Numbered from the stretch's first letter, positions 5,799 through 59,020 are shown. The stretch: 64,000 nt of DNA from Deltaproteobacteria bacterium (GCA_023382265.1 JAMCPX010000017.1:4838-68837), one strand, 5' to 3'. A program made the numbers and translations. The notes: generated by a model from the sequence alone, not told the origin.

Positions 5799-6893
5799 TT
5801 ATCCTTTTGCCCACCTGTTTAATTCAAGAGGTATCAAGTAGTATGGTAAAACGCGATCTACCTTTCCGGTTGCTATTGCCTCCCTCGGCATGCCGAAAAC
5901 AACCGCCGTTTCTTCAGATTCTGCTATTGTATATCCGCCGGCATCCTTTATCATCTCAATCCCTTTTTTACCGTCATTACCCATACCGGTCAACACGACA
6001 CCCGAGCACATACTCCCAAACCTTTTGGCGGCAGAAGCAAACATTTCATTAACGGATGGAACAAATTTATCTGTTTCCCTTTTTGGAATGAGATGGGCTA
6101 TCTTTTTATTACCTTTAGTACCTATGGATATGCTGTATCCGCCTGGTACAACTAAAGCATTGCCTCTGTGTAAAGCGTCTCCGTCTTCTGCTTCCTTAAC
6201 GTTAAGATGAGTGTACTTGTTAAGCCTTTGAGCAAATGTAGATGTAAACCCGGGCGGCATGTGCTGAGATATAACAACACTTATATTAAGCTCCCTCTCC
6301 AATCCGGCAAGTATCCTCTGCACTGCAGACGGTCCTCCGGTGGATGATCCGATTGTTATAAGTTTGAAATCATTATTCATACTAAACGGTTCACTTTCAG
6401 GACTGTTAATCTGGACTATAGGCTTTGATGAAACATCTATACCTAAATTTAACTTAGCATTTATATCGGCAATCCTCCTTTGAACATTATGAAGATTTAT
6501 AGACCGAATACTCAACACCTTTTTTATAATATCTTCCTTTATAGAATAAAGTTCCATCGATATTCTTTTTGTCGGCTTTGGTATAAAATCTACTGCACCA
6601 AGCTCCATTGCTTTAAATACACTCTCCGAATCGGAAAGAGCACTGACAACGATTGTTGGAGTCGGTTTTGTTCTCATCAGAATTCGCAGGAAGGTAAAAC
6701 CATCCATTTTTGGCATTTCGAGATCGAGGGTTATAATATCTGGAGAAAGCACCTTTATTTTTTTTAGAGCATCTTCACCATCCGTGGCTGTTCCTACGAC
6801 GACAACATCAGGAATTGATTCAAGGATATTCTTTATTGCCCTCCTGTTAAAGGCTGAATCATCTATTATTAAAACCTTGGAGACCTTATTCAT
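5799..6893 (-). CDS. cheB: chemotaxis response regulator protein-glutamate methylesterase CheB
   Basis: N-terminal REC (VLIIDDSAFNRR...DIITLDLEMPKMDG) plus a C-terminal methylesterase domain (GSSTGGPSAVQRIL, HMPPGFT, GMGNDG). Confidence 0.9.
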   Translation of the reverse strand: MNKVSKVLIIDDSAFNRRAIKNILESIPDVVVVGTATDGEDALKKIKVLSPDIITLDLEMPKMDGFTFLRILMRTKPTPTIVVSALSDSESVFKAMELGAVDFIPKPTKRISMELYSIKEDIIKKVLSIRSINLHNVQRRIADINAKLNLGIDVSSKPIVQINSPESEPFSMNNDFKLITIGSSTGGPSAVQRILAGLERELNISVVISQHMPPGFTSTFAQRLNKYTHLNVKEAEDGDALHRGNALVVPGGYSISIGTKGNKKIAHLIPKRETDKFVPSVNEMFASAAKRFGSMCSGVVLTGMGNDGKKGIEMIKDAGGYTIAESEETAVVFGMPREAIATGKVDRVLPYYLIPLELNRWAKG

Positions 6894-7762
6894 TTTGCAG
6901 GTTTCCTATATACAAGATCATTTTTAAGCTGGACAAGTTTAAATACATTTGTAACACATATTAATGATTCTGCATGTCCAAGCAATAACCAGCCATTATC
7001 AAACAGCTTTTCGTAAAAACGTTCGGCGAGTTTTTTCTTGGATTCGGTATCAAAATATATCAAAACATTTCTGCATATTATTGCATCAATCCGAGGGAGT
7101 AGATTCATCAAGTTTGAGTCCATAAGATTGATCCTTGATATCTTAACCATATTTTTTATCTCATCCTTTATTTTATACCTGCCTTCGTAAGGTTCAAAGT
7201 ACTTTTTCTTATAGTAATCATCAATTACTCTGAAAGATGATTGTCCGTATATGCCCTTACGGGCTATTGCAAGGACCCTCTGGCTTATGTCGGAAGCTAA
7301 TATCTCAAGATTAAAATCTTTATCCACTCCATACTCTTTTGCTAACATAGCTATCGTATAAGGTTCTTCACCCGTTGATGAACCGGCACTCCATAACTTT
7401 AAGGAAGGCTTTGACGAATAAGCCTTTTCTACCTTTAATGTGGGAATAATTTCCTCAAATAATGCCTTTATCTGGGGAAGTTCTCTAAAAAAATATGTTT
7501 CGTTAGTTGTTAATATATCTACGATTGCGCTAAGTTCCTCTTCTTTAGCCTTGTCGTATTTTAAAAACAGATAATAATCACGGAATGAATTTAATTTTCT
7601 GAAAGCAAGTCTGTCTACGAGTCTTGATTCTATCAGATATTTTTGCTCTTCAGAAAAAAAGATACCGGTATAATCCTTTATGAAATCCCGCAGTTTGTGA
7701 AAATCTTCGTCCTCCAGCACCACTTTATTATTACCCTGTTCCTGAATCACTATCCGATCCAT
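6890..7762 (-). CDS. cheR: chemotaxis protein methyltransferase CheR
   Basis: CheR all-alpha N-domain followed by a SAM-binding block (LKLWSAGSSTGEEPYTIAML). It overlaps cheB by 4 nt. Confidence 0.9.
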   Translation of the reverse strand: MDRIVIQEQGNNKVVLEDEDFHKLRDFIKDYTGIFFSEEQKYLIESRLVDRLAFRKLNSFRDYYLFLKYDKAKEEELSAIVDILTTNETYFFRELPQIKALFEEIIPTLKVEKAYSSKPSLKLWSAGSSTGEEPYTIAMLAKEYGVDKDFNLEILASDISQRVLAIARKGIYGQSSFRVIDDYYKKKYFEPYEGRYKIKDEIKNMVKISRINLMDSNLMNLLPRIDAIICRNVLIYFDTESKKKLAERFYEKLFDNGWLLLGHAESLICVTNVFKLVQLKNDLVYRKPAK

Positions 7763-9684
7763 CGAATATTATCTTTTTGAGTAACAATAACCTGTTTTAT
7801 TTTGTCATCACTACTCGATAGAAGTTTTTTAAGTATCTCCTGAGCACTACCGGTTTTGCTTTTCCCTACTATCTGGATCGCTTCTGAAATTACATCGACA
7901 TCTCTACCGGCTAAAGTATTCTCTATATCTGCACCCGCATCCTTGCACTGTAAATTTACAATATTCTGGAGTGCTGTAAGCATAACTATGGGTGATTCAT
8001 CATAGAGATACGGTTTTAACAATGGATAAGCTTCTTCCGAATTATTAAAACAAATAAGGTTTTTGACAATCTCCGCCCTAATCCATGGATCTTCATCATT
8101 TGAAATCCATTTAATTGTTTCTATAAAATGTTCCGGCTCTATCAATGATACCGTTCTTATAGCTTCTATCCTTACATCTCTATTCTCGTCTGTTAATGCC
8201 ATTTTAATATCTTCAACATAGGTATGCAGTTTTATTTCTCCGATTGTTAATATAATGGCTGCTCTTACAGCAGGTTCGCTGTCGTTAAGCAGGGTTTTCA
8301 CATAATCATCCGAATCTTTGTTATAGAAACTTTTTATAAGCTTTGCAGCGGACAATCTTAAACGATAATCCGTACTGTGGACCATGTCTTTAAGCAAATT
8401 AAAAGGAAAAACCTTTAACCTTTGGCCGACTTTTACAAAGTTGTTAATAATGTGATCCTGAATCTCATTTACGGATGAAGTTATAATCTTCATAAAGAGT
8501 TTTAAACTATTTTCATGTATATAATTACCTATAACATCGGAGAGAAGCATAAGTATATCAGGCTCATCCGTGTATTTTATTATGTAGGATAAACCTTCCG
8601 GGTACGGGTTCTGTTCTTCAGGAAGATGGGATAAATACTTTAAACCAAGTCTTATGTGATATATGTTATTACTTCCTATGAGCAAACCAATTACATCTTC
8701 CTTTACCTGATCATTGAGATCCAATAACGCACTCAGGCATGCATCCTGCATTTCAGGTTCTTCTGCATATCTGAAAATAAGATTCAGGCTGCTTGCTATT
8801 CCTGACCAGCCGGCAATCCTGATACCCGCTGCTCTTGCATGTGGATTAATGCTTGATAATAGTTTTTCTATTAAAAACTGATCATATAGATGCCCGTTTT
8901 TCACTTCGTTTCGTACGTACGACTTACCCTGTTCATCCAGACTCAAGTATAACTTGAGCATGGACTGTGCAGCAGCTTCCATGTTTATCCTTTTTGTATC
9001 TCTTATTCCTTCGATTAAGTATTGTACGGCATGAGCTTCATGGCTTGAACCAAGCAGATCGTAAACAGCCTTTTTGAATAATGGATCGTTTAAAAGCGGG
9101 ACAACATTCTGTATGGGTATTTTGAATCCTCTTTGTCCAAGGTTTGCAATGGATTCAACAGTTGAAAAAACAACATATAATTCCTTTTCTCTTAAAAGCT
9201 CACACAAATCATTTACAATATCCTGAGTTCCAATCTTTCCAAGAGCTTCTATAGCAGCGGTAGCAAGGTTTTGTTGTTTAACGTGCGTTAGAGCCAAGAG
9301 AGTCCCGATCGCTTTAGGGTCATTTAGCTCACCTATGACATCTACAAGAAGTTTTGACAGCTCCCAGTCTTCAGGGTTTATCGCCCTTAATATTTTTTTT
9401 ATCCCATGCCTGCCAATCCTTGTGAGTCCTTCTATGCCCGCTGTCCTGAGCCCCGCATTATTATGATCGGAAAGCATATCTATAAATATATCAATAAGTT
9501 TATCCTTAGAATATATCTGTAGAATCTCATCGATCGCGGCCTTTCTTACTCTGAAACTCTCATCACCGAGTAGAGATTTGATCACATGAACATTCTCATC
9601 GTAAGAGAATTTATCCAGGCTTTTTGTTAACCGTATTTTCTCTTCTTCATTTAAATCCGTTGTCGTTAGTTTGTCATCCGTCAT
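7750..9684 (-). CDS. HEAT-repeat (PBS-lyase-like) protein encoded inside the chemosensory operon
   Basis: 644 aa of repeated roughly 30-aa helical units (D/ExxxRxxAxxALGxIG-like: VRKAAIDEIL, TAAIEALGKIG, VRAAIILTIGEI, VRIEAIRTVSLI). It overlaps cheR by 13 nt and the next gene by 1 nt. Confidence 0.7.
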   Translation of the reverse strand: MTDDKLTTTDLNEEEKIRLTKSLDKFSYDENVHVIKSLLGDESFRVRKAAIDEILQIYSKDKLIDIFIDMLSDHNNAGLRTAGIEGLTRIGRHGIKKILRAINPEDWELSKLLVDVIGELNDPKAIGTLLALTHVKQQNLATAAIEALGKIGTQDIVNDLCELLREKELYVVFSTVESIANLGQRGFKIPIQNVVPLLNDPLFKKAVYDLLGSSHEAHAVQYLIEGIRDTKRINMEAAAQSMLKLYLSLDEQGKSYVRNEVKNGHLYDQFLIEKLLSSINPHARAAGIRIAGWSGIASSLNLIFRYAEEPEMQDACLSALLDLNDQVKEDVIGLLIGSNNIYHIRLGLKYLSHLPEEQNPYPEGLSYIIKYTDEPDILMLLSDVIGNYIHENSLKLFMKIITSSVNEIQDHIINNFVKVGQRLKVFPFNLLKDMVHSTDYRLRLSAAKLIKSFYNKDSDDYVKTLLNDSEPAVRAAIILTIGEIKLHTYVEDIKMALTDENRDVRIEAIRTVSLIEPEHFIETIKWISNDEDPWIRAEIVKNLICFNNSEEAYPLLKPYLYDESPIVMLTALQNIVNLQCKDAGADIENTLAGRDVDVISEAIQIVGKSKTGSAQEILKKLLSSSDDKIKQVIVTQKDNIRWIG

Positions 9685-10625
9685 TATGATATGCCCAATT
9701 CCTTTTTCTTCCTCGTTATCAGTTCATTAAAAGATGCTGCAAGAAAATCTTCTGCGGTTCTTATATGTTCAGGAATCCTTTTCTCAAAGTATCTATTTCC
9801 TTCCTCGATATCATCTCTCAGCAATTCCGAAAAATTTCCGTGTCTTACTCCCTCCTCAACCAACTCCTGGTTGTAAAGTGCAATATCCGATACAATAATT
9901 CTTGCAAGTCTTCTTGCCTTTTCTATTTCTTCCTTATCTAAGGGTGTTTGTACAAATCCCTCTTCTTTTAATCTCTTTATATCTTCTTTACGAAGTTCCG
10001 GGATTGTTGTCTCCACTCTCTCTGTTCCTGTCTCTGCATGTTCTATGGGTTTCTGAGGTTCTTGAATTTCTTCCAGTTTTATTAAAAGTTTGTTTATCTT
10101 GGCAATCAAATGATCTCTTATATGATGTTTCTCTATAAAATCATTGGCACCGTAAAGGCTCTGCGGCATACGTTTATAACGGGTTTTATCGTATATGGAA
10201 GCTATAAGTATAACTTTTATACCGTGAAGTCTTTCATCATTTTTTATCATCTCCGGGAACTCAAATCCAAATATCTCGGGCAAAGCTACATCAACAATAG
10301 CTACATCCGGATGTGAGTTCATCATAATGGAGATAGCCTCTATGCCGTTTTTAGCAAATAAAGGCACATAACCTGCTGCTTTTATAATAACACCAATCAT
10401 ATCCCTCATTGCATTACTTGAATGGGCGATTAGTATTTTTCTTACTGCCCTGTCATGATGCGGCTTGTTTGGCTCATTATTCGCTTCTTCACCTATTGCT
10501 TGCGATTTTTTCCTCAACATAAAGATAGCTTTGCATTTTGAACACCTTATCTTAATCTTATTAGAAGATAACTTATCTTCAAAAAGTTTGTATTTGGTTG
10601 AGCATACAGGACAGCTTACAATCAT
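9684..10625 (-). CDS. MJ0042-type zinc-ribbon + receiver (REC) domain protein with an uncharacterised C-terminal region
   Basis: N-terminal CPVCSTKY...CSKCKAIF zinc ribbon. A REC domain follows, with a conserved acidic pocket (ILIAHSS...VAIVDVALPEIFGFEF...KVILIAS). The C-terminal roughly 120 aa is helical, charged and unassigned. Confidence 0.65.
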   Translation of the reverse strand: MIVSCPVCSTKYKLFEDKLSSNKIKIRCSKCKAIFMLRKKSQAIGEEANNEPNKPHHDRAVRKILIAHSSNAMRDMIGVIIKAAGYVPLFAKNGIEAISIMMNSHPDVAIVDVALPEIFGFEFPEMIKNDERLHGIKVILIASIYDKTRYKRMPQSLYGANDFIEKHHIRDHLIAKINKLLIKLEEIQEPQKPIEHAETGTERVETTIPELRKEDIKRLKEEGFVQTPLDKEEIEKARRLARIIVSDIALYNQELVEEGVRHGNFSELLRDDIEEGNRYFEKRIPEHIRTAEDFLAASFNELITRKKKELGIS

Positions 10626-10633
10626 AAAATGGT

Positions 10634-12748
10634 TTATACCTTAAACATCTTTATTATATCGTGAAGAACCTTAGCCTGTTTATCTAGCAGTTTTGAAACC
10701 TCATTTAGTTGGGATATGCTTGCTACATTCTCTGAGGAACCTTCTTTAATCCTGTTCAAAGATGATGCAACAATATCATTCGTTTTGGCCTGTTCCCGTG
10801 TTGCTTTATTTATGAAATTTACCATCTCCGTTATATTTTCTATAGCCTGACTGATGAATTTGCTGCTTTTAGCCTGCTCTTCCATCGATTTCTTGACCTG
10901 CTCTGAAACTCCCCTCATCCTTTCAGCAGCACTTGTTATCTGTTCTGAACCCCTTGCCTGTTCCTGTGTTGCCTTTGCTATCTCGACCATCATGGTAGTT
11001 ATATTTGTAATAGCCTCTGTTACTTCTTTTGATGCCTTTGCCTGTTCCTGTGTTGCCTTTGCTATCTCGGATGACATTAAACTGGATTTGGCCGAGCTTT
11101 CCGATATCTTCATAAGTACGGCGCCGGCTTTGTTTGCAAGTTCGCTGCCTTTTTCTACGGTTTCACTGCCAAGGATAACAGACTCCCTTGCCTGCATGGA
11201 TTCAGCCTGTACAGCCCTTATTATATTTGTGATCTCCTTTGTGGATGATGCCGTTCTTTCTGCAAGTTCTTTTATTTCATCCGCCACAACTGCAAAGCTT
11301 TTTCCATACTCACCGGACTGTGATGCGATAATTGCCGCATTAAGGGCAAGCAGATTTGTTTGATCGGTAACTTCATCTATCACATTAAGTATCTTGCCTA
11401 TATCATCTATTTTCTGGGTAAGATTATTTATTGTATCCTCCACATGATTAGAGGCTTCTTTTATCTTCTGCATGCCGTCTATTGTAATATTAACAGCCTC
11501 AACACCATTCTTTGCATCGCTCATAACCTGGTTGGCTATGGAAGCCGTTTCGTTTGCATTTGTTTCGATCTGTTTTGTAGATGCATCCATTTCTACTACA
11601 GAAGCGGCTGTTTCGTCTGTTATTTTAAGTAATTGATCTACATTGTCGGCAACCTGTTTGATAGAAGCACTCATCTCTTCTATTGATGATGTTGTTTCTT
11701 CAATAGAGGAAGAAAGCATCTCAACGTTTTCAAGCACCTCTTCTATACTTGATGACAGCTCAAGTACGGATGATGAGCTTTCTACCGCGGATGAATGGAG
11801 CGTTTCTGTATTTGTTGCGATCTCCTTTATGGAGGCATTTAACTCCATCATGGATGAAGAATTTTCTTCAACCGATCTTTGCTGAAACCCTGATGTCTCA
11901 AGAAGTTTTCCGGCATTATCGGATATCCTTCTAACAATTTCTGTCGTATCAGATGATGCGTTCTGTATGCGTTTTAGTATGTCTCTTAAATTCGAAGACA
12001 TGGTATTAAATGAATTTGCAAGCATGCCGATCTCATCTTTTGATTTTGCAGATACCGTTTGGGTAAGGTCTCCTTCTGATATAAGAGACGCCTTTTCAGC
12101 TATAACAGGGATCTGTCCTATGATCCTCTGAACAAAAAGAAACGTTATACCAGCACCGATTATGAAATTCATGAGAACGATAAGTAATGCGCCCCATATA
12201 AATGATACGATCTTTTTTGATATACCGGCAAGAGACATGCCGAGATACACATAGCCCTGAACCGTTTTAGCCTGCTGCAAGGCTCCGCTCGCGTTTGGCT
12301 TGGAACTCTCTGTGACAACATCCTTGTTTACTTCAATGAATTGTCCGATATGGTGAATGGTAATTGTCGTGTTATGATTTTTTGCCGTTCTGAGTATTTC
12401 AGCTAAAAAATTTGCTGTCGCCTTATTCCTGTATTTAGATGCAAGCGTTACTCCGTTTGCATCCGTTATAACAACATAACTTACATCATTATCCTTAAAC
12501 ATATTATCTATAAGTTCCTCAAGAACAACTCTATCCTGAGCAATAACACCAAACCGGACATTGTAAGCGAGGTCCTCCGCTATCGTATTACCCCTTTTAA
12601 CAAATTCCACCTTATCGAGTGATCTCATAAGGAATAGATAATATAAGCTGTAGACAGTGCTAAGTGCTATGATTCCCCAGAGTATGTAAATAATGAATTT
12701 AAGCCTGAGGCTATATTTGACATTCTCCAACTCTCCAAAAAATTTCAT
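10634..12748 (-). CDS. mcp: methyl-accepting chemotaxis protein (two TM, roughly 150-aa periplasmic sensor, HAMP, long signalling domain)
   Basis: Highly conserved MCP signalling hairpin ([41 protein letters not shown]), a HAMP region after TM2, and long heptad-rich arms. Confidence 0.9.
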
Positions 12749-13287
12749 CTTGTGCCTCCAGTTTTTTGTTTTTTATCCTTAAAAATTAATTTCTCGAATT
12801 GTATTTTCTCTGTTGTCGAAAGGATTTTATCCAGCTCAAGAACCATGATGATCCTTTTTTTATCGCTGACAACACCGGAAAGATACTCAGAACCAATGCC
12901 TTTTGCTATTTGCGGCGGCGGCATAACCTTGCTCTCAGGAACTTTTAACACCTCTTTAACTTCATCAAGGATTAAACCTGCTACCCTATCCAGAACCCTT
13001 ACTATAACTATACGGGCATTTTCATCGGGTTTGTCGGATAGCACATCGAATCTCTTTCGCATATCAACAATAGGTATGATCGTTCCTCTGACATCAATGA
13101 CGCCTTCAAGAAAATCCGGTGCTTTGGGAACTTTTGTAAATGGTGTGTATTTTATAATCTCTACGATTTTATTTATGTCAATTGCAGAATAAACATTCCC
13201 GATTTTTAATACTATGAACTGTTTAATAAGCTCTTTCTGATTAACGTTTTTATCAAGTTTTTGCGTATCACTATTCTTTGTATTCAT
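12745..13287 (-). CDS. cheW: chemotaxis coupling protein CheW
   Basis: 180-aa single CheW domain ([14 protein letters not shown]...[17 protein letters not shown]...GLILDEV). Confidence 0.85.
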
Positions 13288-13290
13288 ACA

Positions 13291-13965
13291 TTAAGCCTTT
13301 AACATATCGGACGATTTTATTATTTCTTTAAGGTTCAATACAACAGTAAATCCACCATTATAAGTGCTTATCCCTGATAAAAACTTAACATCCACACTAC
13401 CGGAAACATTGGTAAGCTTGATAGAGTCGGAAGAGATCCTTTTTACATTTGTTATTTTATCCACTACAAGCCCCAAAGCTGCATTATCCATATCAACCAT
13501 AACAAATCTCGTATCTGTGCCAAAGTTTAAGAAGGGTAAACCTATACGCGTTCTCATATCTATTAAAGGCATGATCCCACCCCTTAGCACTACTATACCG
13601 AGGACGAACTTGGCTGTATTGGGTACGGGCGTGATATCTCTGACCCTTATTATTTCCTTTACCAAAGAGATCTCTATTCCATACTCTTCCTCGCCGAGAT
13701 TAAAGCATAGAAGTTCTTTTTCACTGTCCAGTGGTGTATACTTTTTTAGTTCATTATGTGCAAGTTCAAGTAAAGTATGAGGCTCCGTAGATACAGGTTT
13801 CCTCTCCTGATCCGGTTGTGATTCTATCAAAGGCTCTTTAATCCGGTTCTTTTCGCCTTGCTCTTGAGAAGACATTATCCCGGGTTCTTTTTTTTGTTTC
13901 TCTTTAAGTTTAGCAAACTTCTCTGATTGCTCTTTTGCCTTTTTTCTTAACTTCGATATATCCAT
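13291..13965 (-). CDS. CheW-like coupling protein with a KE-rich N-terminal extension
   Basis: CheW domain (LCFNLGEEEYGIEISLVKEI...IVVLRGGIMPLIDMRTRIGL...LGLVVDKI) preceded by a roughly 70-aa charged low-complexity region. Confidence 0.75.
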   Translation of the reverse strand: MDISKLRKKAKEQSEKFAKLKEKQKKEPGIMSSQEQGEKNRIKEPLIESQPDQERKPVSTEPHTLLELAHNELKKYTPLDSEKELLCFNLGEEEYGIEISLVKEIIRVRDITPVPNTAKFVLGIVVLRGGIMPLIDMRTRIGLPFLNFGTDTRFVMVDMDNAALGLVVDKITNVKRISSDSIKLTNVSGSVDVKFLSGISTYNGGFTVVLNLKEIIKSSDMLKA

Positions 13966-13966
13966 T

Positions 13967-14776
13967 TTAGGTTAAACTTATCCTGACATCATCTATAATT
14001 GCATTTATAGATTTATCATCGATCATTTCAAGCTCTTCACCATAACCATAAAGCAACGCATTGTTGCATAATGTGTTTATAGATCTCGGAATGCCTTTTG
14101 AGTATTTGTATATCATATCTACAGCGGAAGATGTAAACAGAGGTTTATCCCTGCCCGCGACATTTAATCTAAAATATATGTATCCCTCAACCTCTTCTCT
14201 GCTGAGTGAACCAAGATGAAAAGCAACCCCTATCCTCTGTCTGAATGCATCGTAATACTTTGTCTGTATCCTTTTACGAAATTCGGTTTGACCGATAAGT
14301 ATTATGCTTAAAAGATTCATATTATCAAGCTGATAGTTTGTTAATAAGCGGATTTCATCTATTGTGCTTTTTGATGGAATCAATTGTGCTTCATCTATTA
14401 TTATAACCGGAACCGTATTTTTATTATAAAGGTCTGAGATCTTATCGCTGATCTGTTCTATTATCTCATATTTGAAGTATCTGAGATCCTCTATCCCAAG
14501 CCTTTTTGCAACGGTTTTTAAAAATTGGGTCGGAGAAAGTCGTGGATTGATAATATTTATAATTGTATAGTTTCCCTCAAGACTATCCATTACACTTCTC
14601 GATATTGTAGTTTTGCCCGATCCTATATCACCCGTAAGAACAGCGAGCTCTTTTTCCTGTATTGCAAACAAAATCCTTTCGTATGCCTCTTCGTGTTGTT
14701 TTGACTTATACAAAAATTTGGGATCGGGTGTTTTATTAAAGGGCTTTTCTTTTAATGAATAAAACTCTTCGTACAT
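13967..14776 (-). CDS. ExeA/GspA/MshM-like AAA ATPase (AAA_22) embedded in the chemosensory operon
   Basis: Colinear match to the ExeA/GspA N-terminal ATPase (YxxFYxLKEKPFxxTPDPKFLYxS...LTGDIGSGKTT Walker A...IIIDEAQ Walker B...KGIPRSIN). It lacks the C-terminal peptidoglycan-binding region. Confidence 0.75.
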   Translation of the reverse strand: MYEEFYSLKEKPFNKTPDPKFLYKSKQHEEAYERILFAIQEKELAVLTGDIGSGKTTISRSVMDSLEGNYTIINIINPRLSPTQFLKTVAKRLGIEDLRYFKYEIIEQISDKISDLYNKNTVPVIIIDEAQLIPSKSTIDEIRLLTNYQLDNMNLLSIILIGQTEFRKRIQTKYYDAFRQRIGVAFHLGSLSREEVEGYIYFRLNVAGRDKPLFTSSAVDMIYKYSKGIPRSINTLCNNALLYGYGEELEMIDDKSINAIIDDVRISLT

Positions 14777-14777
14777 A

Positions 14778-16784
14778 TTAACCCCTTACCACTTCTTCCA
14801 CAAATATAGATACATCTATTACAAGAACGATTTCGCCTGAACCCACATCAGCAGCACCGGAAATACCTTTTACGCCTTTCAATAATTTACCGAGAGGTTT
14901 GATAACAACATCCTGCTGCCCGATAAGGCTGTCGGTCAATATCCCTATCAATCTTTCACCAACACCCACCTCAACGACATAATAGTGATCCGGACTTTTA
15001 TCTTCCTTTTTACCGAAATCCAAAACCCTTGATAGTCTTACAACCGGTAAGACAGTATCCCTGAGTTTGATTATTTCTCTATTCTCTACAGTTCTTATAT
15101 CCTCTGAACGTATAAAAATGCTTTCATTTATTGAGTTTAGAGGAATAGCATATCTTTTGCCGTCTGCCTCAACGATTAAAGCCTGAATAATGGCAAGCGT
15201 TACCGGCAGTGTAAGTTTGGTTCGTGTCCATTTACCTTCCTCTGTTTCTAAATCTATCATACCGCTTATTGCTCTAAGATTTGTTTTTACAACGTCAAGT
15301 CCAACTCCTCTGCCCGATATTTCGCTCACGTCAGACTTTGTAGAAAAACCTGGCAGAAATAACATGCTGAATAATTCATCCCTGGTTGGTTTTGAGGATG
15401 ATGAGAGTAACCCGCTTTCTACAGCCTTTTTTCTAATAGCTTCAAGTGATATTCCTTTACCATCGTCTTCTATTTCTATAATGACATGATTGCCTTTTTG
15501 ATATGCACGTATCGATATCCTGCCTTTTTCCGGTTTACCCGATAGTAGTCTTTCCTCTGCTTTCTCTATTCCGTGATCTATTGAATTCCTTATTATATGC
15601 ATCATTGGATCTGTCAGCTCTTCTATAATCAATTTATCCAATTCCGTTTCTGCACCGTAAAAAGACAGTTCCATTTCTTTGTTGAGACTTTTAGCGATCC
15701 TTGTAGCTGTTCTTGTGAGTTTATCAAAAAGCTGGCTCAAAGGGATCATCCTTATATCAAGAATACCGAGCTGAAGTTCATTCAGTTTCATCTCCAGTCC
15801 TTTCAATATTTTGGCAAATTCAACGGCTGTACCTTTAAATCCAGTCTCCTGCCGTAAGGTCTCTAATGTTCTTAAAAGGTTTGTTTTGAAAAGGATAAGC
15901 TCACCTACAATATTCATGATATGATCAAGCTTCGCTATGTCAACCCTTACAGTCTGAGCTATACCCTTTATCGACGTGGTCTCATCAATACCCGATGAGA
16001 CTACGGATTGCGAGCCGTTATTATCATGTGTAACGGCGGCAGACTCTTTTTGATTTCTCAAGTTTTGTACTTCCAAATTTTTAAAATCCAGGGCACTGCG
16101 TATTTTGTCTTCCGACTCTTTCGTTCCAATAATGATATCGAATTTTATTTCGTTTTCTTTTGCCTCTGTTGTGCTTGGAAGTGTAGTAATAAGCTCTCCA
16201 AAACTTTTTAATTCAGCAGTTAAATCGGATAGCTCTTTATCAAAACTCATAATATTAAAAATTGTTTCTATCTTAAATATGTCGTTGCCCTCCTTGATGT
16301 TTTCTCTTAACCTTGATTCCTCATACTCCGTGAGAACACCCAGTATGTCCTTGTTTAATGAGAGTAACGAAAATATATCGTCCTTTTTCTCTTCCGGTTT
16401 ATCATTCTCTGCATCTAAAAGCTTTTTGAGCAGCGGTTCTATATCAGTGCCTCTGCCGAAATTTTCCGAAGAGACCATTGTTCTCAAAAGATCGCCTGCA
16501 GAGTACAAAGCATCTATAAGCTGATCCGAAATCTTAACTTTACTCAGTCTTACTTTATCAAGCAGATCCTCCATCTTATGGCTTGTATCTGTAACTTCTT
16601 TGAAACCAAACATACTGGATATCCCCTTCAGGGAATGTGCCGCACGGAAAAGATCGTTTATTACATCTGGATCGGGCTTAGCCGTCTTTCTTGCATTGTC
16701 TATGATAAGAACGTCCTCAAATAATTTATCTATAAGCTCTTCCGCCTCTGCAATAAATTCTTTTGTTGCTTTATTTTGTTCCAT
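14778..16784 (-). CDS. cheA: chemotaxis histidine kinase CheA
   Basis: P1 HPt (RAAHSLKGISSMFGF), dimerisation domain, HATPase (N, G1 DDGKGI and G2 GRGVGLDVV boxes), and a C-terminal CheW-like P5 domain. Confidence 0.9.
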   Translation of the reverse strand: MEQNKATKEFIAEAEELIDKLFEDVLIIDNARKTAKPDPDVINDLFRAAHSLKGISSMFGFKEVTDTSHKMEDLLDKVRLSKVKISDQLIDALYSAGDLLRTMVSSENFGRGTDIEPLLKKLLDAENDKPEEKKDDIFSLLSLNKDILGVLTEYEESRLRENIKEGNDIFKIETIFNIMSFDKELSDLTAELKSFGELITTLPSTTEAKENEIKFDIIIGTKESEDKIRSALDFKNLEVQNLRNQKESAAVTHDNNGSQSVVSSGIDETTSIKGIAQTVRVDIAKLDHIMNIVGELILFKTNLLRTLETLRQETGFKGTAVEFAKILKGLEMKLNELQLGILDIRMIPLSQLFDKLTRTATRIAKSLNKEMELSFYGAETELDKLIIEELTDPMMHIIRNSIDHGIEKAEERLLSGKPEKGRISIRAYQKGNHVIIEIEDDGKGISLEAIRKKAVESGLLSSSSKPTRDELFSMLFLPGFSTKSDVSEISGRGVGLDVVKTNLRAISGMIDLETEEGKWTRTKLTLPVTLAIIQALIVEADGKRYAIPLNSINESIFIRSEDIRTVENREIIKLRDTVLPVVRLSRVLDFGKKEDKSPDHYYVVEVGVGERLIGILTDSLIGQQDVVIKPLGKLLKGVKGISGAADVGSGEIVLVIDVSIFVEEVVRG

Positions 16785-16787
16785 GAG

Positions 16788-17156
16788 CTATCCTATATAC
16801 CTTTTTATAAACTTTTGAAGCGCCTCAGGCTTAAAGGGTTTAACAAGGTATTCGTTTGCACCAAGCCCGATACCTTTTTTCCTGTCATTCTCTGTTCCCT
16901 CTGTAGAGATAATGATTAGAGGTATATCTTTATACTGCTCATTTTTTCTTATAAAATTTATGAGTTCAAGCCCATTTATGTCAGGCATATTTATATCCGT
17001 TACGACTAGTTGAAATCTTACCTGCGGCAGCAGTTTTAGAGCTTCAAAACCAGTTGGAGCTTCATAGATATCATAGTCACCAACACTTTCTATAGCGGAG
17101 GAAATAAATGCACGCATGGTAGCGGAATCCTCTACAATAAGGATATTGTCTGTCAT
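16788..17156 (-). CDS. cheY: chemotaxis response regulator CheY
   Basis: 122-aa single REC with the conserved Asp pocket (ILIVEDSATMR...LVVTDINMPDINGLELI...PLIIISTEG...KP). Confidence 0.9.
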   Translation of the reverse strand: MTDNILIVEDSATMRAFISSAIESVGDYDIYEAPTGFEALKLLPQVRFQLVVTDINMPDINGLELINFIRKNEQYKDIPLIIISTEGTENDRKKGIGLGANEYLVKPFKPEALQKFIKRYIG

Positions 17157-17158
17157 TA

Positions 17159-18835
17159 TTACTTTCGCTCCTTTAGCATTCTTTCAAGATAAGACTTTTC
17201 CATAACCACACTTGCCTGATTCATAAATATCTCAAAGGCTGTCATATCGCCGATTGGCTTTTTAAAGGGGACATTATCACCGTAGAATATGGCTGCAACT
17301 CTATTTGCCGTTAAGAGTGGTATAACATAGCATTCGATAGGCCAGACGCCGCCAAGCTGATCTATAAATCGCTTATTGGCTTCTGTATGCTGCGGCTCTG
17401 CTTTGATGGGCCTTTTGTATTGCATTACCCTGCCCAGTATTAAATCATCATCTATTTTGATCTCCATTTTTTTTATAACCATATTGGGATTTTTAAAAAA
17501 AGACTCAAGCCCGAATTGTCCGAGCCCTTTTACATTGTTCTTTTTGACAAGAAATAAGACGCCTCTGTTGAGGAGTTCACTTGCAAACCTCATTGTAAGC
17601 AGTGTTACCTCGCCTGTAAAATTTGGATGCATAAGTTCATCAATCATTGATTTCAAAGTAAGCAATCCGGGACTTGATTCGGTTTTAAGTATGGGGCCTT
17701 CCGGTAAAAGGTCTGTTTCATTAACAAACTCATTCGTTAATTCCTCTGTTATATCCTGTATAAGTTTGTGTCCTGCATCATCTTCTTCTTTTATTTCCTG
17801 TTTTGTTGTTACCACTTCCTTCCACACAGGTTTAAATGTAAAACCTGCCTCATGATACTGCCTCATAAGGGTTGAAATCTTTTCAACTATATCCATATAG
17901 GTATCAATTTCATTCAAAGATCTTGAGAATTTCTTCGGCTTTTTTAAATATGCGTACACACCAAGCATCTTGGCCTCTTTTAAAACTTCTTCATTGTTTA
18001 CACTGCTCAAAAGTATAATCGGTATCTTTAGTTTTTTTTCTATTGTCCAATTAAGAAGTTCCAGACCGCCAAGCATACCCTCACCTTTAGTTTTTGGTAT
18101 GGCAAGTTCGGTAACGATTAAAGGAAACCTTGGTGAATCATGTATAGATTCAAGATAGTTATAAAGCGTCCTCAGATCATCCATAACAGTTATTTTCAGT
18201 CCTCTTGACTCAAGGCTTTCTTTAAAAAATGACTGTGATTCTGTATTGGGATCAAGAATAATAATCTCTTCCATCTCCATTAACTTCGGTTCCATTTCTT
18301 CTGTAACAGAAATCGGCGTACTCTCGGCTCTTTTTTGTTCATCGATTTGGCGCACAGCTTCCATTGCCACGTACTGAGGATTAATAGGAACAGATAAATA
18401 ACACTCATACGCATTTATCAAAACATTCCTGTCACTCGCTTCACTCAGTTCAAAGTTGAAATTTCCCTCTTTCCATTCAAAAAAGTTAAATATGATTGAT
18501 GTCACATACGATTTTATAAATTCATCAATGCCCTCTTTATCAATAACATTTGAGTTTATCAAAAGAGATCTCGGATCCTCGATCTCTTCAACCCTGATAC
18601 GATCGTACATCTTTTTTTCCAGTTGTTCTGTAAGGATACCTTTATTTTTAAGTAATCCCAATATATTATTAGGATTGGATGATATTGATGCGGATATGAG
18701 CTGACCATCAGAAAATACAAGTTTACCTTCTTCACCCTTCTTCGTAAGATAAAGAATTCCAGACCGCCTGCTAAGGCTTACTATCTGTAGTATATCACCA
18801 AGAGCTAAATCCTCAAGGCTACCTATTAAACTCAT
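17159..18835 (-). CDS. DUF4388 (PatA-N-like) domain protein with a degenerate receiver-like domain and a GAF-like C-terminus; first gene of the chemosensory operon
   Basis: The N-terminal GSLEDLALGDILQIVSLSRRSGILYL matches the DUF4388 signature. The central REC-like fold (KITVMDDLRTL...PLIVTELAIPKTKG...IILLSSV) has the phospho-acceptor position replaced (TEL for D). The C-terminal roughly 150 aa is GAF-like. Confidence 0.55.
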   Translation of the reverse strand: MSLIGSLEDLALGDILQIVSLSRRSGILYLTKKGEEGKLVFSDGQLISASISSNPNNILGLLKNKGILTEQLEKKMYDRIRVEEIEDPRSLLINSNVIDKEGIDEFIKSYVTSIIFNFFEWKEGNFNFELSEASDRNVLINAYECYLSVPINPQYVAMEAVRQIDEQKRAESTPISVTEEMEPKLMEMEEIIILDPNTESQSFFKESLESRGLKITVMDDLRTLYNYLESIHDSPRFPLIVTELAIPKTKGEGMLGGLELLNWTIEKKLKIPIILLSSVNNEEVLKEAKMLGVYAYLKKPKKFSRSLNEIDTYMDIVEKISTLMRQYHEAGFTFKPVWKEVVTTKQEIKEEDDAGHKLIQDITEELTNEFVNETDLLPEGPILKTESSPGLLTLKSMIDELMHPNFTGEVTLLTMRFASELLNRGVLFLVKKNNVKGLGQFGLESFFKNPNMVIKKMEIKIDDDLILGRVMQYKRPIKAEPQHTEANKRFIDQLGGVWPIECYVIPLLTANRVAAIFYGDNVPFKKPIGDMTAFEIFMNQASVVMEKSYLERMLKERK

Positions 18836-20229: not shown

Positions 20230-22845
20230 TTAAGGTAATTTCTGTAATGTATCATTAAGTATCGTCAGTATATAGGTTGGGTTGTGTATGCCAAGACTGC
20301 CGTCGCTATTAACAAGTGCGTAGTTCCAGCCTGCTTCCAAAACCGTCGTGGTTAGAGGATTTGCTGCACTATTGATCCAGAATACAGGACCCGGGGCAGA
20401 ACCTGTTGTTGCTGTTATAGAACCCATCGCAAGTGTGAATGTTGCGTTAGAGGAATCCCACAACTGGTAGCCCTGCTGTCCGTGCACCTCCGAGAATGCC
20501 GCTGCCGTTACAGGAGTTGCGATTGTCTTGGTGTTTGAGGCCCATATTGTATAACCTGATGAAGCTGAAAAGTTGATTGCAGCGATTACAGTATTAGAAA
20601 GGTTCGTTTCAAGCTGATTCAGTAAACCCTGAACCTCTGTTTGTAAGCCGTAGCCTGTAACACCCGATCCATGACAGTTCTGACAGATCGTGCCCTGGTC
20701 CTGTGGATTGATTGTCCATACATGTGATGAAGGCGCACCTCCTGGATTGTTTGGATTATAGACCATGTGACATGTTACGCATGTATCTGCAATGTTTGCG
20801 TGCTTTGACACATATATCGTGGTTGTGCCTGTAATACCTGTAAAGTATGAGCTTTGGCCCATCAGTATGTCTGCCTGCGAAGGTGTATGAGGCGCAGAGT
20901 AATCAGCTACTGGAACAGAGTCATTCCTTAATCCATTTCTTGTATTATGACACTCCATACAAATTGCACCCGCACCTACCGAGTCCGCAGTAAACCCTGC
21001 TGCAAGTGTAAATGTGTTGCCGTAAACTCTTAGCTGATCAGGGTTGGCGGCATTATGGGGATCATGACATGCCTGGCATGTTTGAGGTTGAACCTGCGAT
21101 ACTGTAAGCCCTAAAGCTGCAAGCTGGGTAAGATTAAGACCAACGAGGTTTTGCATGCCATTGTTTACGCCAGAAGAAACCTGGTCAATATATGCATTAA
21201 ATCCCTGTGCAGAGTGACATCTTCCACAGTGTGCCGCATTTGAACCCATTCCCTGGATTGTTGCCTCTGAAAGTGATAAGTCAAGATTCGCATGAGGTGA
21301 TATTGCCCAGTCAGGGCCATTTGAATCATGGCACTGACTGCATACCCCTGCATCCCATCCAACCCTTGCCTGTAAATCATAAGCCTGGTTGGTACTGTGA
21401 TGTGCTTGTGAGTTACTTGGGCCGTGGCAATTCTCACATTGTATATTGGAAAGTGCTGCAAGCCCTGCATAATTTGAAAGCATATTTGTCCAGTTTGATA
21501 ATTGAAGAGTGTCCGGAAATGCCCACCCAAGGGTTTTCATCACATCGTCAAACCCATCGTTATTCGCGAGCGGCGCCTGATCATAACCAACAGTATGACA
21601 GCTCAAACACACCTCATTAGTAGTTAAAGGTATTGGAGAGGAGTCATAGGGCGGGATATCTGCCGGTTCATATCCAGAAGGACCAACAGTGCCGTCTCCG
21701 ATTAATCCCTCAATACCTCTTGTAAACATACTCGCATGTTGAGTCTGAAACCATGGTGCAAAATTACCTGTAATAGTGCCGTTATGACATGCGCTGCAGC
21801 TTGAATTTGAATACCCGCCGGAACCATCAATAGCTCCCATCCATGTTCCTGCTGCAATTGTGAAATAAATACCCGTAGTCGTTTCTTTTATTGTATATAA
21901 ACCCGCTACATCAGGAGTAAATGTTACAACTGTGTATGGGCTTGCTGCTACATTTGTTACAACAGCATTAGAGCCTGCTGGTTTTGATATAATTGATATT
22001 GACGGTGTGGTTGATGTAAAACTAAGGTACACGGGAGTTCCGATACCCACATTTTCTATACCCGCTGTTTTACTCGCGGCTCTTACCATTATTTCCGATA
22101 CCGCTTGAACGCCGGCAGGATTTGTCACATAAAGTGTAAGTCTGTATAAACCTACTTGCGTTGGTCCTATTGATATAATGCTGTCTCTGCCCTGATCGGG
22201 TGTTATACCATTAACCTGAGACATCATTGGATCCGTCGTAAAAGTAATTGATGCTGTTGTTGCTCCCGGTATCTGAGTTTCAACCCCCCCATACTGAGGG
22301 TACGGAATAACTGTCCATGTATAAGAGAGTGCTGACGCTGGATAATTCTGATCTGTTACATTTGCAGATATATTAACAGCTGCATTATATCCTACATTGT
22401 AAAGCCCGACATCATAAGCATCCATATAATAATTAGATGGCCACGTAATCAAAGAAGGCTGCAAACTCAATGGGGCCAAAGCTAATGATACTGATACCGT
22501 AACCGTTGAGCCTGCCGCTACTGCAAAGTACCCTGAAGTATACTGTGCATATCCTTTTGCACTGACCACCACCTGATACGGACCCACTGGTATGTTAGGA
22601 AAACTGAATTTACCCTGCGAATCGGTAGTAGTTGTTGGAAGAACTGCAGGAATCAATGCTACTGTAGCATTTGAAACAGCCTTGCTGCTTGAACTATCAA
22701 CGACAACTCCAGCTATGGTTCCTGTGCTTAATCCTGCCTTACCCGCAGGTCCGGCAGACCCTGCGGCACCTGTTGAACCTTTACATCCTGTAATACTTAT
22801 AGATATCAGGATGCTTGCTAAAAAGAACAAACCTTTTAATTTCAT
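20230..22845 (-). CDS. secreted nonaheme c-type cytochrome lipoprotein with N-terminal carboxypeptidase-regulatory-like and Ig-like domains
   Basis: Lipoprotein signal (LISISITGC), a short G-x-x collagen-like stretch, and a CarbopepD_reg-like beta-sandwich (GTIAGVVVDSSSSKAVSNATVAL...QGKFSF...GPYQVVVSAKGY). Nine CxxCH motifs follow: CSACH, CLSCH, CENCH, CSQCH, CGRCH, CQACH, CMECH, CVTCH, CQNCH. Confidence 0.85.
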   Translation of the reverse strand: MKLKGLFFLASILISISITGCKGSTGAAGSAGPAGKAGLSTGTIAGVVVDSSSSKAVSNATVALIPAVLPTTTTDSQGKFSFPNIPVGPYQVVVSAKGYAQYTSGYFAVAAGSTVTVSVSLALAPLSLQPSLITWPSNYYMDAYDVGLYNVGYNAAVNISANVTDQNYPASALSYTWTVIPYPQYGGVETQIPGATTASITFTTDPMMSQVNGITPDQGRDSIISIGPTQVGLYRLTLYVTNPAGVQAVSEIMVRAASKTAGIENVGIGTPVYLSFTSTTPSISIISKPAGSNAVVTNVAASPYTVVTFTPDVAGLYTIKETTTGIYFTIAAGTWMGAIDGSGGYSNSSCSACHNGTITGNFAPWFQTQHASMFTRGIEGLIGDGTVGPSGYEPADIPPYDSSPIPLTTNEVCLSCHTVGYDQAPLANNDGFDDVMKTLGWAFPDTLQLSNWTNMLSNYAGLAALSNIQCENCHGPSNSQAHHSTNQAYDLQARVGWDAGVCSQCHDSNGPDWAISPHANLDLSLSEATIQGMGSNAAHCGRCHSAQGFNAYIDQVSSGVNNGMQNLVGLNLTQLAALGLTVSQVQPQTCQACHDPHNAANPDQLRVYGNTFTLAAGFTADSVGAGAICMECHNTRNGLRNDSVPVADYSAPHTPSQADILMGQSSYFTGITGTTTIYVSKHANIADTCVTCHMVYNPNNPGGAPSSHVWTINPQDQGTICQNCHGSGVTGYGLQTEVQGLLNQLETNLSNTVIAAINFSASSGYTIWASNTKTIATPVTAAAFSEVHGQQGYQLWDSSNATFTLAMGSITATTGSAPGPVFWINSAANPLTTTVLEAGWNYALVNSDGSLGIHNPTYILTILNDTLQKLP

Positions 22846-51831: not shown

Positions 51832-52527
51832 TTAATGTTTTTTGTCTTGCTCCGAGAGTGTTTCTTTGAATTCGGCTAATGTAAAAATGCCCTTTTTTAT
51901 AAGAATCGCTATTAATGCTTTTATGAATGGCTGCAATTGATTCTCTAAAGGTTCTTCAGTATTTTTTTCAAGTTCATCCTGTTTGATATGAGAATCTATC
52001 TGATATTTGTCCATTTTAACAGAAAGCTCTTCATCCTTTTGTGTTAGAATGGGCTCGTTAATCTTTGCAGGCAGAGGTTTATCTTTATAATAATAATTTA
52101 TAAAATCAGAAATCGTTGATTCCAGCGCGAGGACGGGTTGAATCTTATAACCAACCGCAAACTGAACTGCATCTATTGCTTCAAGGTTTGTAGGATCCGA
52201 CATTGCCAAATACAGACTGGGCTTGCCTGATGCAGCCTTGATTGCTAATGGTAAAATATTATATTTTTCCACAGTCTCAACATGTATGAGGTTAAGAACT
52301 TTTTTATCTATTGTAATCTTATAAAGATCAACCATTTGTATACCAAGCTGTTTACTGAGGAATTTGAGAATATCCATATCTTTTAAGAAACCTAATTTTA
52401 CGATTACTGTACCAAGCCTGCCTCCGTATTGTTTCTGATTCGATAGTGCAACTCTTAATTGTGTTTGATCTATAATACCATGTTCCAATAACATCTCACC
52501 AAGTTTTTTGTGAGCAGGTGGAGTCAT
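51832..52527 (-). CDS. standalone MshEN (T2SS-E N-terminal) domain protein, candidate c-di-GMP receptor
   Basis: Tandem 24-aa MshEN motifs with a 5-aa spacer: KLGEMLLEHGIIDQTQLRVALSNQ-KQYGG-RLGTVIVKLGFLKDMDILKFLSKQ. They are followed by the rest of a GspE_N fold and a short helical C-terminal tail. Confidence 0.7.
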   Translation of the reverse strand: MTPPAHKKLGEMLLEHGIIDQTQLRVALSNQKQYGGRLGTVIVKLGFLKDMDILKFLSKQLGIQMVDLYKITIDKKVLNLIHVETVEKYNILPLAIKAASGKPSLYLAMSDPTNLEAIDAVQFAVGYKIQPVLALESTISDFINYYYKDKPLPAKINEPILTQKDEELSVKMDKYQIDSHIKQDELEKNTEEPLENQLQPFIKALIAILIKKGIFTLAEFKETLSEQDKKH

Positions 52528-57259: not shown

Positions 57260-57261
57260 TT

Positions 57262-57846: not shown

Positions 57847-57861
57847 TGAAGAGGGGATATT

Positions 57862-58464: not shown

Positions 58465-58477
58465 AAAAGGGTAATGT

Positions 58478-59008: not shown

Positions 59009-59020
59009 AGGGGGCATAAA

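Follow-up and report, generated by a model that had tools for sequence, protein, structure and literature searches.

A pathway type needed for electrode colonisation by Geobacter is represented by an operon of eleven genes on the minus strand of a 64,000-nucleotide stretch of DNA from the metagenome-assembled genome of an uncultured Deltaproteobacteria bacterium (GCA_023382265.1, JAMCPX010000017.1:4838-68837; hereafter the window, with positions counted from its first letter). The operon encodes the complete chemosensory core (CheA, two CheW proteins, CheY, CheR, CheB and a methyl-accepting chemotaxis protein, MCP) together with four accessory proteins: an AAA+ ATPase, a HEAT-repeat protein, a zinc-ribbon protein with a receiver (REC) domain, and a protein that combines a PATAN domain (DUF4388), a pseudo-receiver and a GAF domain. 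The initial annotation of the window, made without database searches, had considered that this combination could not be attributed to any characterised pathway; instead, it corresponds to the 'beta group' of Geobacter che clusters (PMC2577667, PMC5585712). The operon therefore adds a new member to a pathway type that is widespread yet has received little study, and does not represent a new system. On balance, we favour the reading that the operon specifies a complete, adaptation-competent pathway of this conserved type, with beta-group/Esn gene content and an F10-like arrangement, which works along the lines proposed below.

Conservation of the cluster and its Geobacter counterparts

The distribution of the cluster was followed through its ATPase, for which 5301 database relatives were found at E <= 1e-10. 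A genome scan with an alignment of the ATPase yielded 80 loci, Geobacter sulfurreducens not being among them, and in a total of 89 loci the open reading frames (ORFs) were called and compared with the eleven window proteins. The same eleven genes occur in the same order in three close relatives (L001-L003) and in a complete genome, also designated 'Deltaproteobacteria bacterium' (L004), whose ATPase is 56% identical to that of the window. In Nitrospirota and on other contigs the order is PATAN-CheY-CheA-ATPase-CheW-MCP(s)-CheW-HEAT-CheR-CheB, and genes for a GAF protein and a REC protein usually come next. Across the 89 loci, all ATPases with at least about 43.5% identity reside in che clusters of this type, in hosts that include Nitrospirota, Thermodesulfovibrionales, Acidobacteriota, Geobacter, Oryzomonas, Malonomonas, Geopsychrobacter and other Desulfuromonadales, and a betaproteobacterial metagenome-assembled genome (MAG). 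Where upstream sequence is present, the ATPase gene of these loci directly follows cheA in 65 of 66 cases. ATPase loci without an adjoining cheA or cheW number 20; in 19 of them the ATPase has at most 43.3% identity, and the last (L039), a contig of 1.6 kb, is not long enough for a verdict. Below 43.5% identity, L089 alone has its ATPase within a che cluster, one of another type. The che-linked ATPases form a clade that is separate from their relatives at about 40% identity.

Among the 43 loci with at least 9 kb of downstream sequence, a CheW is encoded in 42, two CheW proteins in 27, the HEAT protein in 32, and CheR together with CheB in 33, while an in-cluster MCP is present in 20 and the zinc-ribbon-REC protein in 15. 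Most of the loci that appear to have no HEAT gene are either cut off by the limit of the flank or contain a fusion of HEAT and CheR. The genes for the ATPase, the HEAT protein and the PATAN protein hold their position across several phyla at protein identities of 21-56%, and, judged by this distribution, these three are core components of the pathway, with the zinc-ribbon-REC protein and the in-cluster MCP as optional ones. Because synteny is kept across the related loci, the accessory genes are fixed parts and not insertions; conservation beside cheA in relatives is what the initial annotation had proposed to look for.

The link to Geobacter draws on published studies. Tran et al. (2008; PMC2577667) described the beta group as clusters with cheA, cheW, cheB and cheR, from which mcp is missing, conserved among Deltaproteobacteria, and listed the non-flagellated Myxococcus xanthus among the genomes that possess them; unpublished data cited in the same paper indicate that a knockout of cluster 5 of G. 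sulfurreducens alters the extracellular matrix. Using transposon sequencing (Tn-seq), Chan et al. (2017; PMC5585712) found that GSU2220 (CheW, esnB), GSU2221 (the ATPase) and GSU2222 (CheA, esnC) are needed for growth on electrodes, with scores of -2.4, -2.1 and -2.8, respectively, and that deletion of esnB or esnC abolishes electrode growth while the reduction of Fe(III) oxide is kept. In the layout given by another paper these genes are followed by GSU2223 (CheY), GSU2224 (a response regulator) and a pair of GTP-binding proteins, EngA (GSU2225) among them. The Geobacterales loci that were fetched also have no mcp gene, and in all six that were scanned on the upstream side Der (EngA) immediately precedes the PATAN regulator; three of these were followed further, and in each Era lies past Der. 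Since these loci lack mcp and share the published order Der/EngA-response regulator-CheY-CheA-ATPase-CheW, the window operon can be regarded as a beta-group/Esn homologue.

The order common to the window and to the Geobacter cluster (GSU2220-2224 onward) is response regulator-CheY-CheA-ATPase-CheW-...-CheW-HEAT-CheR-CheB, the response regulator at the position corresponding to GSU2224 being of the PATAN type in the relatives examined. The window operon differs in the addition of the mcp and zinc-ribbon-REC genes, the former for a receptor of class 64H, in its neighbouring genes, in a PATAN-protein receiver where D is replaced by E (D-D-D-T-K in Geobacterales), and in the absence of a trailing GAF and REC pair. 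In many relatives cheB is followed by such a pair, a standalone and highly conserved GAF protein (about 275 aa, with an identity of 57-67% across most lineages) together with a single-domain REC protein, for example at L004:19251-20500 and L005:18947-20151 and in about 20 other loci.

The eleven genes and their products

Domains were assigned with Pfam and NCBIfam, and the eleven successive ORFs, running from 18835 down to 5799, are listed in Table 1. The initial annotation was accurate in this respect, as ORF calling, the family databases and structural comparison agree with all of its coordinates and every domain that it had named. CheA, CheW, the MCP, CheY, CheR and CheB are all present with Pfam E-values of 1e-24 to 1e-59. 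From the coordinates, six of the ten junctions are gaps (2, 3, 1, 1, 3 and 8 nt) and four are overlaps (4, 1, 13 and 4 nt); the tight packing that had been described therefore stands, but not a run in which each gene overlaps the next by 1-13 nt. Since every junction is tight enough, the genes are considered to form one operon, as had been supposed, with a full Che core and four accessory genes.

Table 1. Genes of the chemosensory operon in order of transcription
Product	Coordinates	Strand	Length and domain matches
PATAN (DUF4388)-pseudoREC-GAF protein	17159..18835	-	558 aa; Pfam DUF4388 1.3e-24, weak REC 3.9e-08
CheY	16788..17156	-	122 aa, single-domain response regulator; Pfam REC 2.9e-27
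CheA	14778..16784	-	668 aa; Pfam Hpt, H-kinase_dim, HATPase_c, CheW
AAA+ ATPase	13967..14776	-	269 aa, ExeA/GspA/MshM-like; Pfam AAA_22 5.5e-20
Long CheW (CheWa)	13291..13965	-	224 aa; Pfam CheW 4.5e-31, domain aa 84-218
Short CheW (CheWb)	12745..13287	-	180 aa; Pfam CheW 1.7e-34
MCP	10634..12748	-	704 aa; Pfam sCache_4, HAMP, MCPsignal
Zinc-ribbon-REC protein	9684..10625	-	313 aa; Zn_ribbon_4 1.3e-10, REC 6.9e-13
HEAT-repeat protein	7750..9684	-	644 aa; Pfam HEAT_2 6.5e-46
CheR methyltransferase	6890..7762	-	290 aa; CheR 2.4e-55, CheR_N 1.8e-12; no TPR
CheB methylesterase	5799..6893	-	364 aa; CheB_methylest 7.3e-59, REC 1.4e-26

The receptor has transmembrane segments at about residues 18-36 and 179-207, a periplasmic sCache_4 domain, a HAMP domain (nt 11981-12115), and a signalling hairpin of 448 residues (nt 10637-11980) with the tip motif SGEYGKSF at residue 478 and the tip glutamate at 480 (Glu480). 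The distances from the end of the HAMP domain (residue 256) to the tip and from the tip to the C-terminus (residue 704) are 224 residues each, or 32 + 32 heptads, and by this length the protein falls into class 64H of the Alexander-Zhulin scheme. Exactly 224 residues follow the tip in 16 in-cluster MCPs of related loci from several phyla, and 225 in one more. Because the 224-residue C-terminal arm recurs in this manner across phyla, very long receptors are a hallmark of the pathway; in a comparison of Desulfuromonas, 64H receptors were present in all five strains studied, together with beta-group clusters. Both arms of the window receptor (10637-11980, minus strand) contain internal repeats, SS-IEE units in the N-terminal arm and separate repeat units in the C-terminal arm, which fits an extension of the hairpin by duplication of heptads. 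A second type of receptor, of 928-974 aa, is found in relatives (L005:11570-14470, L008:14407-17331, L015:8959-11745, L016:13857-16652 and others) and bears, beyond the 224-residue C-terminal arm, an extra C-terminal domain of about 260-270 aa that Pfam identifies as Phosphonate-bd/NMT1; in this case a 64H receptor would end in the cytoplasm with a solute-binding-like domain.

CheA contains a P1 Hpt domain with His50 (the motif HSLKG can be read in the translation), a weak P2, and P3, P4 and P5, with no fused REC; in NCBIfam it scores 385 bits against CheA_Halo and 322 bits against E. coli CheA. The product of the next gene, the ATPase, has a Walker A motif GSGKT and a Walker B motif DEAQ, both invariant in the alignment of ATPases. 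With the ExeA/GspA/MshM and PEP-CTERM (TIGR03015) ATPases it shares the AAA_22 core, an N-terminal PF..TPD..F pattern and these two motifs. Its best NCBIfam match, which is full-length, is to TIGR03015, the XrtA/PEP-CTERM ATPase, whose cutoff of 324.5 bits it does not reach (247.6 bits), and the protein differs from these families in having no peptidoglycan-binding domain and in being encoded between cheA and cheW instead of beside secretin or exopolysaccharide genes; it is thus not a member of either. The AlphaFold2 (AF2) model (pLDDT 91.4) explains all 269 residues as an AAA+ core and lid. A sequence search of the PDB found no match to the ATPase and the matches of a profile search, to P-loop proteins, MuB and TnsC, were all weak, while the top fold matches of the model were MuB, Orc1/Cdc6, TnsC and RuvB, AAA+ proteins that oligomerise upon binding ATP and act as loaders or switches.

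The nearest relatives of the ATPase outside che clusters (about 40-43% identity) offer a view of the wider clade. In five loci, from MAGs of Nitrospinota, Desulfobacterales, Thermodesulfobacteriota and Planctomycetes, the next gene encodes an HD_5 (HD-GYP-type) protein of 370-406 aa (L071:3208-5177, L072:361-2295, L073:9787-11853, L076:10001-11926, L080:10001-11981), and this looks like an uncharacterised pair. In a Melioribacteraceae MAG (L074:10001-12157) the gene after that of the ATPase encodes 426 aa with a CheW domain at the C-terminus, and no cheA lies nearby. As these relatives pair with HD-GYP-type or CheW-domain proteins, the wider clade may be a signalling accessory and not a secretion factor.

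The two CheW proteins are distinguished by their N-termini. In the window, the long CheW starts with the motif MDISKLRKKAKE (nt 13930-13965), which is followed by a charged low-complexity linker and then the CheW domain. Among L001-L068 the CheW encoded right after the ATPase likewise has an N-terminal extension starting M-D-[IL]-x-x-[IAL]-R-K-K-A and continuing with a variable low-complexity linker. Of the 61 unique CheW sequences that come first after the ATPase, 55 show the pattern M-D-[IL]-x-x-[IAL]-R-K-K and two more have it behind a different start call; the pattern was found in none of 37 second CheW proteins and in none of 3511 other ORFs. A related N-terminus, starting MINILKLRKLEK, is carried by the CheW-domain protein beside the non-che ATPase of L074. 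A Pfam search of the extension at E-values up to 10 returned nothing useful. We infer that the motif is a docking peptide, most simply for the ATPase.

The four receivers of the operon were aligned to E. coli CheY (D12-D13/D57/T87/K109), and canonical sites were found in CheY and CheB only. CheY, with E-D/D/S/K at the key positions, is 49-63% identical to its counterparts in most related clusters outside its own clade. In the PATAN protein (PATAN at about 18332-18823, REC at about 17921-18265, GAF at about 17162-17668) the PATAN domain contains an inserted helical segment, and the key residues of the receiver read D-P-E-S-K, the acceptor aspartate being replaced by glutamate and the second acidic residue of the magnesium site by proline, which bears out its earlier designation as a pseudo-receiver. 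The protein therefore departs from PatA-type response regulators: the PATAN domain is present, but the receiver has no acceptor aspartate and is followed by a GAF domain. Across relatives, most of the Geobacterales and Desulfuromonadales show a canonical form of this receiver (D-D-D-T/S-K); it is degenerate in the lineage of the window and in Acidobacteriota, and absent in Nitrospirota.

The GAF assignment, also made at the outset, is correct and was shown through homologues and fold. A Pfam search with the protein's own C-terminus at E-values up to 10 gave nothing useful, a profile of this domain had no match in the PDB, and profile-profile comparison showed no resemblance to the GAF proteins that stand alone in related clusters (probability 0.9%). 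GAF_2 was, nevertheless, matched in Pfam by nine of 14 homologous C-termini, and in the AF2 model (mean pLDDT 75; 85-91 in the C-terminal domain) the domain resembles many GAF structures, among them 5w10, 3ci6, 3oov and 3eea (Foldseek; TMt 0.65-0.73).

The zinc-ribbon-REC protein consists of an MJ0042-type CxxC...CxxC element (NCBIfam TIGR02098), an atypical receiver and a conserved C-terminal domain, for which Pfam at E-values up to 10 again gave nothing useful. Its four cysteines do not vary among 23 orthologues. In the receiver of the window protein the acidic pair reads H-S, and none of the orthologues has D-D there; the acceptor is D in the window and N in Acidobacteriota. As for the HEAT protein, three loci (L021:12761-14719, L027:8199-10142, L043:13051-14982) each have one ORF of about 645-652 aa in which CheR is joined to the N-terminal half of this protein, and these fusions suggest that the HEAT protein works with CheR.

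Class assignment, known systems and surroundings

The updated Wuichet-Zhulin class table gives F10 as YA...W...W...RB, without listing characteristic proteins, a receptor class or auxiliary proteins; the ACF (alternative cellular function) class as WRW...ABO with CheA:REC and CheR:TPR; and the Tfp (type IV pilus) class as YYWMRABW with a CheA that has 5-6 Hpt domains and a C-terminal REC. The window has the order Y-A-(ATPase)-W-W-(M, ZnREC, HEAT)-R-B and its relatives Y-A-(ATPase)-W-(M or REC)-W-(HEAT)-R-B, both of which show the F10 signature, with the dots represented here by the ATPase, by the MCP or a REC, and by the zinc-ribbon-REC and HEAT proteins. By gene order, the operon is therefore likely to belong to F10, a class that is defined by hidden Markov models and phylogeny of CheA, CheB and CheR; clusters of the window type go beyond the table entry in their 64H receptors and conserved extra genes. 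The initial annotation had recognised a pattern of 'alternative cellular function', but as a formal class this does not apply, as CheA has no REC, the 290-aa CheR has no TPR, and the order is not WRW...ABO; likewise, a single Hpt, the absence of REC from CheA and the different order exclude the Tfp class. F10 has been noted to co-occur with non-flagellar systems more than expected, and it groups with F4 and F9 in co-occurrence analyses. Literature searches on F10 and 64H gave little, and no experimental link between F10 and flagella was found in them.

Two known systems invite comparison. The Che7 system of Myxococcus xanthus, which had been brought up as an example, shares a Che core without CheA-REC or CheR-TPR and a HEAT-repeat protein encoded in the operon, Cpc7, which binds CheY7 and regulates development. 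It differs in its receptor, Mcp7 (821 aa), which is long and cytoplasmic with no transmembrane segment whereas the window MCP is transmembrane, in an order that fits the F13 type (YAWM...RB), and in its listed components, which include one CheW, next to CheA according to its locus tag, but neither a PATAN nor a zinc-ribbon-REC protein; its operon also contains a desaturase gene. The analogy with Cpc7 is a reasonable one for the HEAT protein, to the extent of the shared HEAT architecture. In the cyanobacterial Tax/Pix systems, a PATAN protein (PatA-type, PATAN-REC) is also encoded with a plain CheY and CheA, and PATAN is an output domain, which in Synechocystis binds PilB1 and PilC. The Tax/Pix systems belong to the Tfp type and have a phosphorylatable receiver, whereas in the window protein a pseudo-receiver is followed by GAF, and the PATAN protein of Nitrospirota has no REC.

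Around the operon lie glycerate kinase and phosphofructokinase genes, which are housekeeping genes on the opposite strand, and the gene for a multihaem cytochrome. The latter, just past the phosphofructokinase gene (20230-22845, minus strand), encodes 871 aa with an N-terminal carboxypeptidase-regulatory-like domain; in the related cluster L007, multihaem cytochromes and an outer-membrane barrel are inserted within the che cluster. A sigma-70 promoter scan returned 52 matches against 47.5 expected, with no excess over chance, and no sigma-54 site upstream of 18835 was convincing by eye. Flagellar genes were not found among the window ORFs scanned with Pfam (nearly all non-shadow ORFs of at least 150 aa), in agreement with the initial annotation. 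The type IV pilus genes pilMNOPQ (56206-61585) are 37.4 kb from the operon, with central-metabolism, protease and transporter genes in the interval and, near them, a sigma-54 regulator and two MshEN-only proteins; the genes at 51832-53309 (minus strand) adjoin this sigma-54 response regulator (53632-54996) upstream of pilMNOPQ. The proximity of the pilus genes had been taken as a hint of the output; this clue was rejected and carries no weight, because housekeeping genes intervene and related clusters occupy unrelated neighbourhoods that differ among lineages. Elsewhere in the window, a 558-aa GAF-PAS-HisKA protein (39761-41437, plus strand) ends about 36 residues past HisKA and appears to have no histidine kinase catalytic ATPase domain, and in a 767-aa protein (27950-30253, plus strand) a Ser/Thr protein kinase domain is joined to an FGE-sulfatase (formylglycine-generating enzyme-like) domain at the C-terminus.

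Proposed working, alternatives and significance

In the working that is proposed here, the 64H transmembrane receptor would sense a periplasmic ligand through its sCache domain and, with the two CheW proteins and CheA, would form an unusually long array, in which 224 residues of coiled coil and the HAMP domain would, by a rough estimate, place the baseplate some 35-40 nm away from the membrane. CheA would phosphorylate only the two canonical receivers, CheY and CheB, and CheR and CheB would adapt the receptor. The ATPase gene keeps the same place between cheA and the long cheW, and its product probably belongs to the signalling complex as a stoichiometric partner; the RKK motif at the N-terminus of the long CheW may recruit it as an ATP-dependent assembly or switching factor, in the manner of other initiator-clade AAA+ proteins. 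The HEAT protein would be a scaffold that works with CheR and may also bind phosphorylated CheY, as Cpc7 might suggest by analogy with Myxococcus. The PATAN-pseudoREC-GAF protein would serve as an output or adaptor protein that in this organism is not expected to be phosphorylated and for which control through a small ligand of the GAF domain is more likely; by analogy with Synechocystis, PATAN may bring it into contact with the motor proteins of type IV pili. The zinc-ribbon-REC protein would be a non-canonical modulator. The output is most likely surface colonisation, through control of type IV pili or of the matrix, and not flagellar rotation; a non-flagellar, surface-related output had seemed plausible from the outset, and the electrode genetics of Esn together with the window's lack of flagellar genes are consistent with it.

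A number of points weigh against this reading. The Esn receptor EsnA is annotated as 40H and not 64H (PMC5585712), and the beta group was defined without an mcp, which the window operon possesses, although the che content and accessory genes match. Orthology with G. sulfurreducens rests on the synteny of other Geobacterales and on the published annotation. The standalone GAF and REC pair that trails the cluster in many relatives is absent from the window operon and its closest relatives, a tblastn search of the window for the standalone GAF protein being negative. Because the receiver of the PATAN protein is canonical, degenerate or absent depending on the lineage, a uniform role for this protein is uncertain, and the partners of the ATPase, HEAT and PATAN proteins are predicted only. 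Finally, the assignment to F10 relies on gene order, F10 is formally a 'flagellar' class, and the absence of flagellar genes applies to the 64-kb window and not to the rest of the genome.

Of the other explanations, one is that the pathway controls second messengers and the matrix through a remote response regulator, as with the GGDEF protein EsnD, and that the accessory proteins of the operon serve array assembly or adaptation only. This is possible, if less than probable. In the Esn model the GGDEF response regulator GSU3376 is connected to MCP, CheW and CheA (PMC5585712), the altered matrix of the cluster 5 knockout (unpublished data cited in PMC2577667) points the same way, and the sister clade of the ATPase is paired with HD-GYP proteins; yet Pfam detects no GGDEF, EAL or HD-GYP gene in or beside the operon, and in Geobacter itself the EsnD link is a hypothesis drawn from similar phenotypes (PMC5585712).

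It is rather doubtful that the operon acts directly on type IV pili, with PATAN bound to the PilB/PilC motor and an ExeA/MshM-like ATPase acting on the pilus or secretin machinery. The binding of PATAN to PilB1 and PilC in Synechocystis would agree with such a role, as would the membership of GspA/ExeA in the wider ATPase family, where homologues are annotated 'type II secretory pathway predicted ATPase ExeA', the presence of pilMNOPQ and two MshEN-only proteins in the window, and the pil genes that score in the same Tn-seq screen as the esn genes (PMC5585712). Conversely, the pilus genes are 37 kb off and unlinked in relatives, the operon does not have Tfp architecture, the ATPase's nearest relatives outside che clusters have signalling proteins of the HD-GYP type, and not secretins, as their partners, and an ATPase of 269 aa that is all AAA+ core and lid leaves no place for the peptidoglycan-binding domain of ExeA.

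Ordinary flagellar chemotaxis, in which phosphorylated CheY would control the motor and the extra genes would be lineage-specific tuning factors, is unlikely. It is true that the gene order fits a class labelled 'F', one that groups with F4 and F9, that CheY is a canonical single-domain receiver, and that CheA has the classical five-domain layout without REC. Nevertheless, the Pfam scan of window ORFs found no flagellar or motor gene in 64 kb, the only experiments on the orthologous cluster revealed a defect in electrode colonisation, growth on fumarate and on Fe(III) oxide being normal (PMC5585712), F10 co-occurs with non-flagellar systems above expectation, and the beta group is found in the non-flagellated M. 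xanthus (PMC2577667).

That the four accessory genes are chance insertions without a role in the pathway is highly improbable, for although the genes are unusual and the zinc-ribbon-REC gene is present in just 15 of 43 related loci, the notion is refuted by the synteny of the ATPase, HEAT and PATAN genes across phyla and is further countered by the Tn-seq phenotype of GSU2221, which is that of its che neighbours (PMC5585712), by the HEAT::CheR fusions and by the specific motif on the CheW beside the ATPase. The initial annotation would have accepted chance insertion if the proteins were of a flagellar class and the accessory genes were absent from relatives; F10 is flagellar in name only, and the supposed absence clearly fails.

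To return to the conserved chemosensory pathway that is favoured here, the details that are new are the N-terminal motif of CheWa, the HEAT::CheR fusions and the limitation of canonical receivers to CheY and CheB. A bolder and tentative proposal is that the ATPase and the MD-x-x-K-x-RKKA peptide of the adjacent long CheW form an undescribed ATP-driven module of the chemoreceptor array, one that might assemble, space or remodel 64H arrays, while the HEAT protein would tether CheR.

Few signalling machines are understood as well as chemosensory arrays, yet this widespread pathway type has conserved parts without an assigned role, namely an AAA+ ATPase, pseudo-receivers with PATAN or zinc-ribbon domains, and a HEAT scaffold. 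The fixed order of cheA, ATPase gene and cheW, the CheW motif, the HEAT::CheR fusions and the strict 64H length provide handles on the function of the ATPase and the HEAT protein, and the features of the operon bear on whether class F10 is truly flagellar. The Esn work (PMC5585712), which already established the requirement for the ATPase, supplies the sole genetics for the pathway, and these concern electrode colonisation, hence the relevance to bioelectrochemical systems. If the tentative proposal for the ATPase and CheWa were true, their module would add a new core activity to a machine that is considered to be understood.

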